DNA of 64,000 nucleotides from Bacteriovoracia bacterium. Lineage in GTDB: Bacteria > Bdellovibrionota > UBA1018 > JBFWNL01. The stretch covers positions 75,825-139,824 of the forward strand of contig JBFWNL010000001.1 of NCBI GenBank assembly GCA_050251055.1. The letters run 5' to 3'. Below, one piece after another: positions 27,344-32,031 of this stretch; position 1 is the stretch's first letter, and each line of letters begins with the position of its first letter. Under the pieces are notes generated by a model. The model was not told the origin of the DNA. It saw only the letters and a program-made list of their open reading frames with translations, and made no database searches. Position numbers and translations under genes: made by a program.

Positions 27344-29212
27344 ATGGCCAAAGCAACGAAATCGATCACCACAAGCAGTACTGCTGAGTACTTTTCTAAG
27401 AATCTTCAACAAGTAGGCTTTTCCTCCCAGACCAAGGCTGTGCTGACGACGCTCAAGGAAGCCGTCGATAACGCGCTGGATGCTTGCGAAGAAGAAGGCA
27501 TCCTCCCGGAAATCTGGGTGGATGTGGAAAAGGTGGGTGCGGGTTCACTCAAGAATTCCGACCAGATCCGTATTCGCGTCTTAGACAACGGGCCTGGCAT
27601 CGACAGCGAAGACGTGCCGAAGGTGTTCGGCGAGTATTTAGCTTCTTCGAAGTTTGGGCGCGGACGCTGCTCCCGGGGTCAGCAAGGGATCGGGATTTCA
27701 GCGGCCACGACCTGGGCCCAGCTGACGAGCGCCACGGGCGCGCGCGTGATCACCAAGACGAAGGCGATGCGGAAAGCGTTTTCGGCCGTGGTCGAAGTCG
27801 ACATCAAGCACAATAAAGGTTCTTTGAAAGAGAAAGAAACGATCGACTGGGATCGGCCGCACGGCACCTCGGTCGAATTCGTCATCGATGGGCGCATTCA
27901 GCTCAACGGGGAAGCGGGCCTGATTAACTATCTGAACGGCAACGTGCTCGTAAATCCGCACCTGACCCTTCATTATAAGCTTCCGTCCAGCGACGCCGAA
28001 AATCCGACGAAGGATTACACGACGGTCGAGCGCGTTACCCAGGAGATCCCGCACATCCCCAATGCCACCGAACCGCACCCGCATACGATGAAACTGGGCG
28101 AATTCATTGCGCACTCGCACCTCTTCGGGAAGACGAAGACCTCGGGTTGGTTGAAGAACGGCTTTTCCCGCGTGAGCGACATGGTTATCGGCCAGATGGT
28201 TTCCGAGCAGAAAGTGCCAAAGAGTTTATTCGAGAAGCCGGTGGATAGTTTGAACGAGACCGAGTTCAAACAACTATTTACGGCGATCCAAAACCTGAAG
28301 CTCATGGCCCCGTCGACCTCGTCAGTGCTCTCCATTGGCGAAGAGGCGATGGCAAAAAGCATCAAGCGCCTGGGCGCGATCGATTTCTTTTCGGTCGTGA
28401 GCCGCAAACCCACCATCTGCGACTTCAAGCCCGTTCAGATTGAAGTCGCGGTCGCGCGCCTGGAGGAAAAAGGCGCCGACATGGAAGCCCCCGTGCAGGT
28501 TTTGCGTTTTGCCAACCGTGTGCCGCTGCAGTTCGATAAGTCGGCCTGCGCGATCGTGCAGGCGGTGAGCACCGTCGCCTGGCGCTCCTACGGCCTGGCG
28601 CAGCCGCGCGACGCTCTCCCGCTGGGGCCCTATATCGTCGCCGTGAGCGTGGTGTCGCCCTTCATTAAGTTTAAGAATGCCTCGAAGGAAACGATCGACG
28701 CCTCCGACGAGCTCGTGGAAGAAATCCGCCGCGCGCTCATGCAGGCGGGCCAGAAGCTCTCGCGCCACATCCGCGCGGAAGGCAAGGCGGCCGAGTTAGA
28801 AGAGAAGATCCGGCACATCGAGCAGTTCGGCCCGATCTTGGTCGAAGGCCTGGCGCGGATTTCGAAGGCGCCGGAAACCCGTAAAAAGAAAGCGGCCGAG
28901 GGGCTGCGCAAGCTCTTAGGCCGCGACGCCGAGGAGACCGAAAAGCAGCTGACCGACGCGGCGGCCAAGCTCGAGGCCCAGAAGGCTTCCGATAAGAAGC
29001 GTCAGGGCATTGCCGACGACGAGAGCGGCGCCGACGTGGTGGATATGCATGCCATGGCGGAAGAAGCGCACGAGGCGGTGGAGAAAGAGGCCAAGGGCGG
29101 GAAGAAATCCGCCAAGGAGGCTAAGGCCTCCGCCAAGAAGGCCGAAAAAAAAACCGAGAAAAAAAAAGACAAGCCCGCCGCTAAAGGCAAAGGGCAAATG
29201 GAATTATTCTAA
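27344..29212 (+). CDS. top6B: DNA topoisomerase VI subunit B
   Basis: GHKL motifs KEAVDNALDA, DNGPGI, SRGQQGIGIS, HGT; PHPH; RFANRVPL; FKNASKE transducer Lys. Confidence 0.95.
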   Translation: MAKATKSITTSSTAEYFSKNLQQVGFSSQTKAVLTTLKEAVDNALDACEEEGILPEIWVDVEKVGAGSLKNSDQIRIRVLDNGPGIDSEDVPKVFGEYLASSKFGRGRCSRGQQGIGISAATTWAQLTSATGARVITKTKAMRKAFSAVVEVDIKHNKGSLKEKETIDWDRPHGTSVEFVIDGRIQLNGEAGLINYLNGNVLVNPHLTLHYKLPSSDAENPTKDYTTVERVTQEIPHIPNATEPHPHTMKLGEFIAHSHLFGKTKTSGWLKNGFSRVSDMVIGQMVSEQKVPKSLFEKPVDSLNETEFKQLFTAIQNLKLMAPSTSSVLSIGEEAMAKSIKRLGAIDFFSVVSRKPTICDFKPVQIEVAVARLEEKGADMEAPVQVLRFANRVPLQFDKSACAIVQAVSTVAWRSYGLAQPRDALPLGPYIVAVSVVSPFIKFKNASKETIDASDELVEEIRRALMQAGQKLSRHIRAEGKAAELEEKIRHIEQFGPILVEGLARISKAPETRKKKAAEGLRKLLGRDAEETEKQLTDAAAKLEAQKASDKKRQGIADDESGADVVDMHAMAEEAHEAVEKEAKGGKKSAKEAKASAKKAEKKTEKKKDKPAAKGKGQMELF

Positions 29213-29227
29213 AGGACTCGACTAAAA

Positions 29228-30379
29228 ATGGCAGCCATCGGAAATAACGTAGAGATCCCGAAAATTTCGAAAGAGTTGTGCAACCGCCTGCTCGCCGACC
29301 TGGAGAAGGCGCGCCGGCCCGTGCTGGAGGCCACGAAGTGCGCGCTCGACAACTGCGAGTACAACCACAAGGTGGGCTTTCTCACCCCGGGCGACAAGAA
29401 GGTGCGCACGGAGCTGAACGTGAGCTCGGTAAAGAAAATGTCGCGCGCAATTTTCCTGCTGGAGATCCTGCTGCGGAACCTCGAGAGCGGCGCCATCAAC
29501 ACGAAGCGCGAACTTTACTACATCAGCAAGGGCGAGATTAAGCATAACCCCACGCTCAAGCCGCTCGACTTCGGAGACCAGGACGAGTCCGACGCCTCGA
29601 TCGATTTCATCTGCGAGCTATTGGAGTGCTATCGCGAGGAAGTGAATTGCTACGCCAACGACCGCGGCGGCCAAACGTATTCCAACCAGCTTGTGGTGAC
29701 GGAAAGCTTGCCGGACGGCGGCAAGGCCGTGATCGATCTCTCTAAGCTCGGCACCTCGCCGTTCCAGCCAAAGAACCGGCCGCAGAATCTGAAGCTCTCA
29801 GCCAAGAAGAAGATCGATTTCTGCGTGATCGTGGAATCCGAAGGCACGGCCAACACCCTCGTGGCCAATGGGTTCACGAAGCGCCATAACTGCATCCTGA
29901 TCGGTTCCGGGGGCGTGCCTTCGAACGCCGTACGTGGCTGGGCCAAGCGCATCTCCGATCAGTTGAAAACCCCTTTGTACTTTTTCGGCGATCTGGACGC
30001 GTACACCTTGCAGAACATCTACCGTACGCTGAAGGCGGGTTCGGCCGCTTCGCTCATTCGCAACTCGGAATTCTGCGCGCCCGAGGTGCGTTTCCTGGGC
30101 GTGCTGCCCGAGGATATCAAGAAGTACGACCTGAACGATTACCCTGTGAAGGAAAACGACATGCAGGAAGTGCGGGCGCTTAAGAAAGCACGCGATGCCC
30201 TGGATAACGACCCTTTCTTCAAAGACAAGAAGAACAAGGGCCTGTCGGACATCCTGCACTGGTTGCTGAAGAACAAGCGCCGCTGCGAGCAGCAGGCCTT
30301 CTTTACGGTCGATCCGCGCGATCCGACCATGCCCGAGAAGATCATCGTCGAGAAGATCAAGAAGGGCGTTTACGTCTAA
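29228..30379 (+). CDS. top6A: DNA topoisomerase VI subunit A (Spo11-like)
   Basis: TKRELYY (catalytic Tyr); TOPRIM VESEG and FGDLDAY; lies 15 bp downstream of top6B. Confidence 0.93.
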   Translation: MAAIGNNVEIPKISKELCNRLLADLEKARRPVLEATKCALDNCEYNHKVGFLTPGDKKVRTELNVSSVKKMSRAIFLLEILLRNLESGAINTKRELYYISKGEIKHNPTLKPLDFGDQDESDASIDFICELLECYREEVNCYANDRGGQTYSNQLVVTESLPDGGKAVIDLSKLGTSPFQPKNRPQNLKLSAKKKIDFCVIVESEGTANTLVANGFTKRHNCILIGSGGVPSNAVRGWAKRISDQLKTPLYFFGDLDAYTLQNIYRTLKAGSAASLIRNSEFCAPEVRFLGVLPEDIKKYDLNDYPVKENDMQEVRALKKARDALDNDPFFKDKKNKGLSDILHWLLKNKRRCEQQAFFTVDPRDPTMPEKIIVEKIKKGVYV

Positions 30380-30438: not shown

Positions 30439-31770
30439 GTGCGTCGTTTAATCGCTTTTCTTCAAATTCCCATTTTCTTTTTGGCCGTCACGCTGACGGC
30501 CGGGTCTGCGCGCGCGATTGATCCTGATTGCCTGAGAACCGCGGCGAGCGACGGAATCGCCCGCGTGGCGTTGGCCGGATTCAAAGCGAATCAGGAAGCC
30601 GTCCAAAAAAACTTTGAACTGATGGGGATCGCCCGCAACGGCCCGGCTTCGTTGAACCGGAGCAGTCTGGGGTTGCTGTTTGAGCACGGGGTGATGGTTC
30701 CGGGCGGATCACCCACCGCTCAGCTGGAGCTCGCGGAGATTCTCTGCCAGCCGCATGCCGGGCTGCCGGAGTTGCGTAAGCACCTTGACGACTGGGCCAC
30801 GCGCCATGGAGTCGGCTATAAGTTCGCATTTCCCGCCGACATCGATAAAAAAGCGAACGAGTACTTCGCAAAGGGCCTGATCGCGTCCGATCAGGGCGTC
30901 GCTCCGAACGGGTTCGTGCAGCCCGATCTTTATGCGCAGCTTGCCCGGGACGGGTACTATCCGATCGCCGATCCGCATGACGTGACCTCCCACGTCGCCT
31001 CGCTCACGGATCCTGTCTTCCGCCGAAACTTCGGACGCATGGTGGCCCAGCTCAATGAGCTGGAAGGAAAACTCGGGCGCGCGAGCCCGATCCTGATTCG
31101 GGGCATGCGCGACAGCGACGATGTCGCCAAGCAAGGGTATTCCCGGTTGTGGGGGCATCTTTCCCAGACCGTGCGGGATTCCACCCACGAAAATTGGACT
31201 TACCTGGTGAAGGACGCCCAGGGAAAACCGCGGCTTTTCATGCAGGGAAATTCGACTTTCAACGCGATTACCCTGGACTGGATGGTCGCCGGCCAGGCGA
31301 ATGACACGAACTTCGTCATACGGCTGCTGAATCGGGGAGGGGATTTCTCCACGGCCCCGGGGCGTATTCCAAACTACGCGACGGAAGATCTGGACGAATT
31401 GCGCTCCATCGGCGTTTATCTCAAGCAACCGGGGGCCCAAGCTCGCTACGATAGATATAAGCGTGCCCTAGTGGAAAACGGGATGGATCGGGAGGCGCAG
31501 GGGCAGGCGTCGGAAAAGCTTCGCGGATTTGTTGCCGCGAAACGGCGCGAGCTCGACCAGGGTTTTGGCAGCCCTCGGCCCTACACGGAGACCGAGGTAC
31601 AGAAACTGTTGCAGGATCTGGCAGTTTTCATTGATAGGGACCCTCAGCTCTCGCGTATTTTCAGTCAGGCGTCGAAGCAGGAGCTTTTTGAGGCGGCCAT
31701 GGAGTTCACCGAAGACTACCAGAAGTTTCTGGATCGCTACGTCGAAGTGATGGGCGGCGGCCGAAAATAA
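30439..31770 (+). CDS. Hypothetical secreted protein
   Basis: 443-aa ORF; signal peptide ending ARA|IDPDC; DPHDVTSH motif. Confidence 0.7.
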   Translation: MRRLIAFLQIPIFFLAVTLTAGSARAIDPDCLRTAASDGIARVALAGFKANQEAVQKNFELMGIARNGPASLNRSSLGLLFEHGVMVPGGSPTAQLELAEILCQPHAGLPELRKHLDDWATRHGVGYKFAFPADIDKKANEYFAKGLIASDQGVAPNGFVQPDLYAQLARDGYYPIADPHDVTSHVASLTDPVFRRNFGRMVAQLNELEGKLGRASPILIRGMRDSDDVAKQGYSRLWGHLSQTVRDSTHENWTYLVKDAQGKPRLFMQGNSTFNAITLDWMVAGQANDTNFVIRLLNRGGDFSTAPGRIPNYATEDLDELRSIGVYLKQPGAQARYDRYKRALVENGMDREAQGQASEKLRGFVAAKRRELDQGFGSPRPYTETEVQKLLQDLAVFIDRDPQLSRIFSQASKQELFEAAMEFTEDYQKFLDRYVEVMGGGRK

Positions 31771-31827: not shown

Positions 31828-32031
31828 TTAGCCGAAATCGCGGTCCATGACGGTCTTGCGGCCGTCGGACTTCGCATTTTCCATGGCTTGATCGCAGAGG
31901 TTGCGGATCTTTGCCGAGAGCGCCTCCATGACGTTGCTCGAAGTGTTCATGCCGGACTTGTCGCGGATGTACTTCTTGAGCTTCGAAATCACGACCAATA
32001 CTTCTCCACCAGTTGCTTGTTCTTCAGACAT
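31828..32031 (-). CDS. Bacterial histone-fold protein (Bd0055/HBb-like)
   Basis: 67 aa EVLVVISKLKKYIRDKSGMNTS...AMENAKSDGRKTVMDRDF with the RKTVxxxD histone signature; resembles Bdellovibrio Bd0055 as I recall it; strong AGGAGG RBS. Confidence 0.9.
   Translation of the reverse strand: MSEEQATGGEVLVVISKLKKYIRDKSGMNTSSNVMEALSAKIRNLCDQAMENAKSDGRKTVMDRDFG

Follow-up and report, generated by a model that had tools for sequence, protein, structure and literature searches.

The gene considered here, top6B, encodes subunit B of DNA topoisomerase VI (Topo VI) and lies in a 64,000-nucleotide stretch of the genome of Bacteriovoracia bacterium (assembly GCA_050251055.1, contig JBFWNL010000001.1, positions 75,825 to 139,824), the whole of which is referred to as the window. 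Its product, Top6B, ends at the extreme C-terminus in the pentapeptide QMELF (residues 618-622; 29195..29209, + strand), a candidate motif for binding the bacterial sliding clamp DnaN (β-clamp), as judged from its sequence, its uniqueness in the genome and a model of the complex with DnaN. QMELF is probably a working clamp hook, which would make this enzyme a clamp-tethered Topo VI; recruitment of Topo VI behind the replication fork would then proceed through DnaN. What the sequences and models described below show is the tail itself, its match to the motif, its predicted disorder, the lack of Topo IV genes and the distribution of such motifs among Top6B tails. An earlier note on this DNA had proposed that Top6B gained a clamp tether, and motif fit, disorder, a docking model and wider recurrence of such motifs speak for that claim, whereas conservation in the nearest orthologues does not. 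What is new is the class of client, the docking peptide itself being known.

Sequence of the Top6B Tail and Fit to the Clamp-Binding Motif

The clamp-binding consensus is given as QL[S/D]LF and, in its broader form, as QxxLF, in which positions 1, 4 and 5 matter most (PMC12309361; the consensus also in PMC9690074). QMELF fits QxxLF, as does the QMGLF of Bacillus subtilis DnaE, and deviates from QL[S/D]LF at positions 2 (Met) and 3 (Glu), and its earlier description as a β-clamp-binding-like motif is sound. Top6B is alone in ending in Q[LM][SDE]LF among the 12,380 six-frame open reading frames (ORFs) of at least 80 amino acids in the genome, with 0.007-0.019 such endings expected per genome from position-specific residue frequencies. 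Only this stricter form is distinctive, because the looser QxxLF-stop is seen in 6 of the same ORFs against 1.26 expected; the other five encode 306, 139, 619, 464 and 146 amino acids.

Motifs of the same kind are carried by the host's own clamp clients: DnaE has QSSLF at residue 987, DnaE2 has QLTLF at 881, MutS has QLSLF at 845, and the C-terminus of DinB reads ...PIQMEFAFV. The DinB gene (G000:C1:382654-383919, + strand, locus L032) ends in ...RRTPIQMEFAFV, and its likely clamp motif has Q-M-E in common with QMELF. In E. coli, C-terminal clamp motifs include QLGLF in DNA polymerase II (Pol II), QLVLGL in Pol IV, QLSLPL in Hda and QMSLL in MutS. The host UvrB (G000:C2:370489-372627, - strand, locus L229; NF003673, 1079.7 bits) closes with QLSLGL immediately after its UVR helix; this hexapeptide is of the Pol IV and Hda type.

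The Top6B C-terminus as a whole reads ...AHEAVEKEAKGGKKSAKEAKASAKKAEKKTEKKKDKPAAKGKGQMELF and is followed by the stop codon at 29210-29212. The 42-residue peptide singled out in the earlier note corresponds to residues 581-622 (nucleotides 29084-29209); the peptide and its end were correctly placed, while the start given for it, 29082, lies just upstream of the codon boundary at 29084. The order described there, an acidic stretch, then a basic tail, then QMELF and the stop, is confirmed by ORF translation and composition. The acidic segment (residues 553-580; 29000..29083, + strand) holds 9 Asp/Glu against 1 Lys/Arg, carries ADVVDMHAMAEE and overlaps a low-confidence helix at 569-583. It is followed by a Lys/Ala-rich basic tail (residues 581-617; 29084..29194, + strand), recognized by its composition and predicted to be disordered, with a predicted local distance difference test (pLDDT) score below 50. 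The last 42 residues comprise 16 Lys, no Arg, 8 Ala, 5 Glu and 1 Asp, for a net charge of about +10, and the disordered tail in full is the 66 residues past approximately residue 556, made up of the acidic patch, the Lys/Ala tract and QMELF.

The likening of this tail to histone H1 holds only loosely. As in the H1 C-terminal domain, the window tail is disordered and rich in Lys (approximately 38%) and Ala (19%). S/TPKK motifs and high proline typify H1 tails, however, whereas the 42 C-terminal residues of Top6B hold no [ST]PKK motif, a single proline and 6 acidic residues, and are attached to an enzyme.

Structural Models of the Tail and of Its Complex with DnaN

The fold of Top6B was predicted with AlphaFold2 from an alignment of 32 sequences. 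The last ordered part is a long stalk helix with a C-terminal helical hairpin (residues 455-556; 28706..29011, + strand; predicted helices 455-507 and 511-556), after which pLDDT stays below 50 over residues 557-622 but for one weak helix at 569-583. QMELF is thereby exposed, standing at the extreme C-terminus inside a predicted disordered segment. In Methanosarcina mazei Top6, the hairpin that follows the stalk binds the winged-helix domain of Top6A (PMC13040014), and therefore the tail should emerge near the DNA gate.

Modeling of the peptide with the cognate DnaN, suggested beforehand as a check, placed Top6B residues 616-622 in the canonical cleft. Residues 583-622 were modeled with DnaN (30-row alignment) in three runs, which scored 0.67, 0.67 and 0.65, while the best of three controls scored 0.00; the mark used to read such scores is reached by 116 of 157 solved complexes and by 2 of 215 mismatched pairs. 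The runs share at least 81% of their contacts, with a partner pLDDT of 44-48, and the modeled interface joins Top6B 616-622 to DnaN residues 172, 174-177, 244, 246, 249, 280, 322, 346, 348, 362 and 364-368. The cognate DnaN is a 368-residue protein of bacterial type (G000:C4:314591-315694, - strand; PF00712, 8.1e-35), and the modeled contacts use invariant cleft residues: T172, G174, H175, R176, L177, M364, P365 and M366 are the same in all 30 DnaN sequences of the order, and are presumably equivalent to the peptide-cleft residues of the E. coli clamp. On the models, the QMELF peptide looks like a clamp ligand.

Top6B Tails Across Bdellovibrionota

Top6B tails were gathered from 30 loci of relatives, 80 metagenome loci and the best 80 of at least 540 matching genome contigs. 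The transducer motif was present in 187 loci, of which 181 were complete at the 3′ end, and these together with 120 proteins gave 235 unique C-terminal sequences. Where named, the homologs belong to Bdellovibrionota, Bdellovibrionales, Oligoflexia or Bacteriovoracaceae; the nearest is 78% identical to the window protein, and the compared genomes include none of the same family or genus. Past a conserved LLGRDA anchor the tails range from 18 to 137 residues with little common sequence, and 42 of 113 tails in the first orthologue set have at least nine Lys/Arg residues in some 30-residue segment.

Motif enrichment was scanned beyond the first 24 tail residues in 229 unique tails (7,968 residues) against 2000 composition shuffles; only QxxLF and QLxLxL had been taken from the literature in advance. 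Three tails match QxxLF (the window, L126 with QASLF and L209 with QQSLF), where 0.07 would be expected, and none of the 2000 shuffles reaches 3. For a broader pattern, Qxx[LMF]F or Qxx[LMF]x[LF], there are 9 matching tails where 0.59 would be expected, again with no shuffle of the 2000 reaching that number, and its reversal occurs once. When the first residue is swapped, Q gives 9 hits per 204, E 0 per 1,095, K 3 per 1,393, D 1 per 525 and A 1 per 1,269. The motif is kept in sister pairs despite differing flanks (QASLF/QQSLF, then G..ELPPP; QETFDF/QEAFDF; QLELPL/QLALPL), and on a FastTree phylogeny of 224 Top6B core sequences the hits fall at no fewer than four separated places, of which three neighboring groups may have one origin. 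Look-alikes outside the pattern are also seen, namely QLELIKD-stop, QLDLIE, QLDLGI and QLEMKI-stop.

The tails host other recurrent peptides as well. Many long-tailed orthologues have an acidic-hydrophobic patch, D[AVSP][IV]D[VTIM][HE].[ML], ahead of the basic tract, the window copy being ADVVDMHAMAEE at 29033-29068; patches related to D[AV]IDVH.M are present in many of these long-tailed proteins. Seven of the eight members of one clade (L113, L216, L118, L119, L123, L124 and L221) carry KKSKDDILSVFAPEK (DDILSVFAPEK) in an otherwise variable basic tail, an LF-type hydrophobic docking peptide without the leading Q. In a clade of about 15 (P0119, L022, P0086, L071, P0078, L096, P0064, P0046, P0083, L213, L187, L117, P0106, P0026 and P0116 among its members), KKPKI[IV][LM]PKK stands near the end of the basic tail and loosely recalls the MutL-type clamp motif QxxLxP. 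A terminal E[AV]x[AVILST], such as EANA, EEAVV or AEASA, closes 51 of the 113 tails.

Clamp-Type Endings in Myxococcota-Type and Archaeal Top6B

A search of representatives at 50% identity reduced the Bdellovibrionota clade to one full-length representative and fragments, which are uninformative on tails, and gave two leads, P0133 and P0252. P0133 is 35% identical to the window Top6B and ends in ...RKRRPSDGQLDLVK. Where named, its 120 best homologs come from Polyangiaceae, Myxococcaceae, Deltaproteobacteria and Pendulispora, and the set analyzed as Myxococcota-type consists of P0133 with P0275-P0393 (120 proteins). A QLxL[IVLF]-type motif, QLSL-COOH included, lies within the last 12 residues of 85 of these 120, after a tail rich in Lys/Arg; under the pattern used for cross-comparison the count is 81. 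The commonest variants are QLKLI (15), QLDLV (14), QLSLI (7), QLSLV (6) and QLDLI (6), and the 35 proteins that miss the motif include the near-variants EQLLLT, EQLSFV and EQLSLPES. Strict QLxL[IVLF] is found in 75 of the 120, with just 2 occurrences in the other 75,268 residues of the same proteins.

When the 89 of 120 proteins with Q..L among their final 12 residues are aligned on that pair, which by construction fixes Q and the second L, L takes position 2 in 94%. Position 3 is most often S (29%), D (25%) or K (18%) and position 5 most often I (43%), V (27%) or L (15%), with the protein ending there or one to two residues further on. The preference for S or D at position 3 matches QL[S/D]LF. 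The 12 residues ahead of the motif are variable and rich in Lys, Arg, Gly and Pro, so that a typical end is (G/K)(E/R)QL[SDK]L[IVL]. As read from these sequences, the Myxococcota-type ending is the architecture of the window protein with I, V or L in place of F.

The second lead, P0252, is an archaeal-type Top6B ending in ...KKAEKKPQNTLDSYFG. Its 50 closest homologs (at least 50% identity) are from Methanomethylicus, Methanosuratus, Methanomethylicaceae and Verstraetearchaeota where named, and the Methanomethylicia-type set comprises P0252 and P0394-P0442 (50 proteins). The PCNA-interacting protein (PIP) box, Qxx[LIMV]xx[FYW][FYWLI], lies in the last 15 residues of 49 of the 50, in 24 of them as the strict Qxx[LIM]xx[FY][FY]; examples are KKQHTLDAFFG, QSTLEQFFG and QFTLEEYLR. 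The bacterial clamp motif is present in none of these 50 proteins, and the PIP pattern in none of the 120 Myxococcota-type and none of the 235 Bdellovibrionota sequences; QMELF itself is too short for a PIP box and fails Qxx[LIM]xx[FY][FY]. As PIP boxes are confined to the archaeal clade and QLxLx or QxxLF to the bacterial ones, the motif type follows the clamp of the host.

A midpoint-rooted FastTree phylogeny of 176 Top6B sequences (no outgroup, most rows unlabeled) widely separates the Bdellovibrionota, the Myxococcota-type and the PIP-bearing archaeal groups, which favors independent gains, and Allen and Maxwell infer two or more transfers of Topo VI to bacteria (PMC11302465). These data give an indication that the bacterial motifs were gained independently and do not share a common origin. 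In a further group (P0452, P0484, P0496, P0500, P0501 and P0506), whose tree neighbor is 'Candidatus Manganitrophus', a conserved x[QE]LF[DE] is found approximately 20 residues ahead of an Arg/Lys-rich end (QQELFAE, PQLFDT, GELFDA, TELFEK, DQLFED); this may be another clamp-like motif.

Absence of Topo IV and the Probable Decatenase Role of Topo VI

The host genome (3.77 Mb, 21 contigs, 93.5% complete) has one gene of the GyrA/ParC family and one of the GyrB/ParE family, both adjoining dnaN, and no second gene of either family was found in it. Among 60 genomes of the same order, Top6B is present in 59, and almost every one carries just one full-length GyrA/ParC gene, apart from contig-split genes and one genome with a second, divergent open frame of 1,089 residues. 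By its gene content the order appears to be without Topo IV altogether, so that a single GyrA/ParC gene across the order implies that it runs on gyrase and Topo VI. Allen and Maxwell suggested in 2024 that Topo VI is the decatenase where Topo IV is absent (PMC11302465). As this genome and nearly all its relatives have one GyrA/ParC gene, Topo VI is probably the decatenase of the host, and the role first proposed for it is plausible.

The top6B-top6A Gene Pair and Its Surroundings

The window encodes a complete bacterial Topo VI in the order top6B-top6A. The top6B ORF (27344..29212, + strand) specifies 622 amino acids and a stop codon, with Pfam matches to PF09239 (3.3e-43), PF02518 (1e-10) and PF13589 (4.9e-07). 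Among NCBIfam models it scores 506.7 bits against the equivalog NF003218 (cut-off 274) and 372.2 bits against TIGR01052, slightly under the cut-off of 380.7. The GHKL (Bergerat-fold) ATPase region is assigned by the HATPase_c and HATPase_c_3 matches to residues 34-152 (27443..27799, + strand), and the transducer domain by PF09239 to residues 323-488 (28310..28807, + strand), where the match spans profile positions 1-159 of 159 and is thus complete. The gene for subunit A, top6A (29228..30379, + strand; 383 amino acids), starts 15 nucleotides past the top6B stop, matches PF21180 (1.2e-37) and PF04406 (2.6e-12) in its Toprim and TP6A_N domains, and scores 395 bits against NF003335, slightly under the cut-off of 424.

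Directly 3′ of top6A, a 443-residue ORF at 30439-31770 (+ strand) begins with a signal-peptide-like segment and matches nothing in Pfam at E 0.01. A 67-residue ORF at 31831-32031 (- strand) weakly matches the histone-fold profile PF00808 (E 0.0021; 18.7 bits, below the cut-off of 21.4) and lies 1.45 kb downstream of top6A. Histones have been reported to be essential in Bdellovibrio (PMC11318664), and the earlier note supposed that the acidic and basic tracts of the Top6B tail could contact histone and DNA.

Weighing the Proposed Clamp Hook Against Other Explanations

Several observations count against QMELF as a working hook. A Qxx[LM]F ending is absent from all 119 nearest orthologues, which are 65-78% identical, and QMELF itself occurs in none of the 234 other unique Bdellovibrionota tails. 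The earlier note had named absence of the motif from orthologues, together with lack of DnaN binding, as what would speak against its proposal, and the first half of this is what the tails display. The exact QMELF is therefore lineage-specific, and its conservation among close kin cannot be shown because the genome is the sole representative of its family in the comparison; the window's sister group (L004, P0006 and P0013) has a 33-residue tail ending in EANA. More widely, 127 of the 235 tails are without any hydrophobic pair beyond the first helix and just 2 of the 235 have a clamp-like motif within the last 12 residues. As most Bdellovibrionota tails are without the motif, clamp tethering cannot be required for Topo VI in the phylum.

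The motif and its statistics also have weak points. The Met and Glu at positions 2 and 3 depart from QL[S/D]LF, and a similar variant, the QMGLF of Bacillus subtilis DnaE, is described as weak-binding, that is, weaker than the C-terminal QLSLF of PolC (PMC12309361). F at position 5 is almost never present in the Myxococcota-type motif. The broader enrichment pattern carries less weight because it was written after the sequences were seen, and QLxLxL, the other pattern fixed beforehand, has no match beyond the helix and 2 in a whole-tail scan (QLELPL and QLALPL). Because many of the sequences are kin, the counts exceed the number of evolutionary events behind them. Finally, clamp-peptide complexes abound among solved structures, and for this reason a pass in the complex model may stem from likeness to them and shows compatibility, not binding.

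The explanation that best survives beside the clamp hook, unlikely but to be taken seriously, is that the ending is a neutral accident: the tail would be a fast-evolving, slippage-prone, low-complexity basic segment capable at most of non-specific DNA binding, with QMELF as its chance last residues. Such an account accords with the 18- to 137-residue spread of orthologue tails and their scant common sequence, with the occurrence of QMELF in the window alone among 235 unique tails, and with two A9 homopolymer runs within the tail-coding DNA (29145-29153 and 29159-29167, + strand). The 42 Lys/Arg-rich orthologue tails of the 113 are without a clamp-like motif, and the Lys-repeat tail of Streptomyces TopA is reported to raise processivity (PMC5714199). 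Scanning many windows, moreover, yields some chance matches. What a neutral ending accommodates poorly is the expectation of only 0.007-0.019 such endings per genome, the excess of Q over every other residue ahead of hydrophobic dyads in the tails, the conservation of C-terminal motifs of the same kind in a second bacterial clade with PIP boxes instead in an archaeal one, and the docking of QMELF in the canonical cleft by a model whose controls scored 0.00.

A decidedly improbable alternative is that the hydrophobic tip serves as a short linear motif in docking to a partner other than the clamp, such as a protease adaptor (the tip acting as a C-terminal degron), Top6A or Top6B itself (in auto-regulation that involves the acidic patch), or a nucleoid protein, for example the histone-fold protein encoded 1.45 kb downstream. 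The sub-clade motifs (KKPKIILPKK in about 15 tails, DDILSVFAPEK in 7, the terminal E[AV]x[AVILST] in 51 of 113) imply that tails host several kinds of docking peptide, the acidic patch adjoining the basic tract could fold back on itself, and the histone-fold-like ORF is close by. Q at position 1 with L-F at positions 4 and 5 is, however, a specific signature of clamp clients, and PIP boxes at the same position in archaeal Top6B indicate the clamp and not a partner peculiar to one lineage.

An assembly or frame artefact, in which an A9 run was miscounted and the real protein ends otherwise, might be suspected from the two runs lying 28-50 nucleotides upstream of the motif in a metagenome assembly, but is hardly credible, since contigs assembled separately from two sequencing runs of one landfill-metagenome study agree over 28700-29500 with 0 differences and 0 gaps (word depths 7.7 and 15.9) and the same A9 lengths, the remaining two frames yield PPLKAKGKWNYSKGLD-stop or an early stop, and the present frame continues the Lys/Ala-rich composition typical of orthologues. 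On this agreement a frame error was rejected, although the two runs may themselves have supplied the reads of the assembly, so that the comparison checks the assembly and not independent biology. The possibility that another frame conceals a C-terminus typical of the order was rejected as well, as the other frames give WNYSKGLD-stop or stop early.

Relation to Known Systems

QMELF resembles the motifs of bacterial clamp clients in presenting Q-x-x-L-F at the extreme C-terminus of a flexible segment, in being modeled in the cleft between DnaN domains II and III, and in having counterparts in clients of the same host. It differs from them in that its carrier is a type IIB topoisomerase, in the Met and Glu at positions 2 and 3, and in being absent from the nearest orthologues. 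No bacterial topoisomerase is among the clamp partners tabulated in PMC9690074. With PIP-box clients of PCNA the relation is one of architecture: in Methanomethylicia-type Top6B the layout of the window protein recurs in PCNA form, with QxxLxxF[FLWI] following a basic linker, whereas QMELF is too short for a PIP box and the host has DnaN and not PCNA.

Like archaeal Topo VI subunit B from M. mazei and Saccharolobus shibatae, the window protein has a GHKL ATPase, a transducer, a long stalk and a C-terminal hairpin, with the A-subunit gene adjacent. In M. mazei a folded immunoglobulin-like C-terminal domain is present that bacterial Top6B is without (PMC11302465), and in the window protein, unlike those of M. 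mazei and S. shibatae, the hairpin is followed by the disordered acidic and basic tail and the clamp motif. A long, Lys-rich, low-complexity C-terminal extension on a topoisomerase is also known from Streptomyces TopA, where the lysine-repeat domain is reported to stabilize the enzyme-DNA complex and to raise processivity (PMC5714199); that enzyme, however, is of type IA, its tail is much longer, and no clamp motif is reported in the accessible part of that paper. Topo IV of E. coli offers the functional parallel, being a decatenase concentrated on newly replicated DNA by protein-protein contact, through MukB and SeqA (PMC11253446). It differs from the window Topo VI in being of type IIA and in having other partners, and the available portion of that source describes no sliding-clamp contact.

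No description of a clamp-binding or PIP motif on Topo VI was found in the full-text literature (subscription journals and supplementary files lay outside the search), in agreement with the earlier note, which knew of no description of clamp-coupled Topo VI. In the 2024 phylogenetic survey, 'clamp' is used for the GHKL gate only and tails are not mentioned (PMC11302465), and 'PCNA' and 'sliding clamp' do not occur in a 2026 cryo-electron microscopy paper (PMC13040014). The nearest hint comes from Pyrococcus abyssi, where NucS pull-downs co-purified PCNA and two Topo VI subunits (PMC4929162).

Proposed Mechanism and Implications

If QMELF is a clamp hook, it would insert into the hydrophobic cleft between domains II and III of DnaN, as do the motifs at the C-termini of Pol II, PolC and further clamp clients, and the basic tract would, judging from its charge, contact duplex DNA non-specifically. 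The enzyme, as an A2B2 tetramer, would present two tails, each with a basic tract and a clamp hook, and the clamp dimer offers two clefts; with two tails and two clefts, enrichment of the enzyme on newly replicated DNA that carries clamps would follow. Clamps left behind on replicated DNA would thus concentrate the only dedicated decatenase where precatenanes arise, and Topo VI at these sites would remove both precatenanes and positive supercoils.

A wider reading, held tentatively and judged a little short of evenly balanced, is that tethering of Topo VI to the clamp has evolved repeatedly, in archaea as well as in bacteria. A tail peptide matched to the host clamp would then make a replisome-coupled decatenase, the tail having been rewired to DnaN in bacteria that acquired the enzyme from archaea. 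Under such repeated evolution, PIP boxes would be the form taken in Methanomethylicia-type Top6B, QLxL[IVL] that in Myxococcota, and scattered QxxLF-type motifs that in Bdellovibrionota, the window included.

The 2024 survey treats the role of Topo VI in bacteria as an open question (PMC11302465), and how decatenases find newly replicated DNA is known for few model enzymes. A clamp hook on Top6B, if true, would answer directly what Topo VI does in bacteria, and a type II topoisomerase would join the list of bacterial clamp clients. It would also be a case of short-motif rewiring after horizontal transfer, with the PIP box serving PCNA on one side and QLxLx serving DnaN on the other. For the organism considered here, an imported archaeal enzyme would have been plugged into the bacterial replisome by a five-residue peptide where Topo IV is missing.

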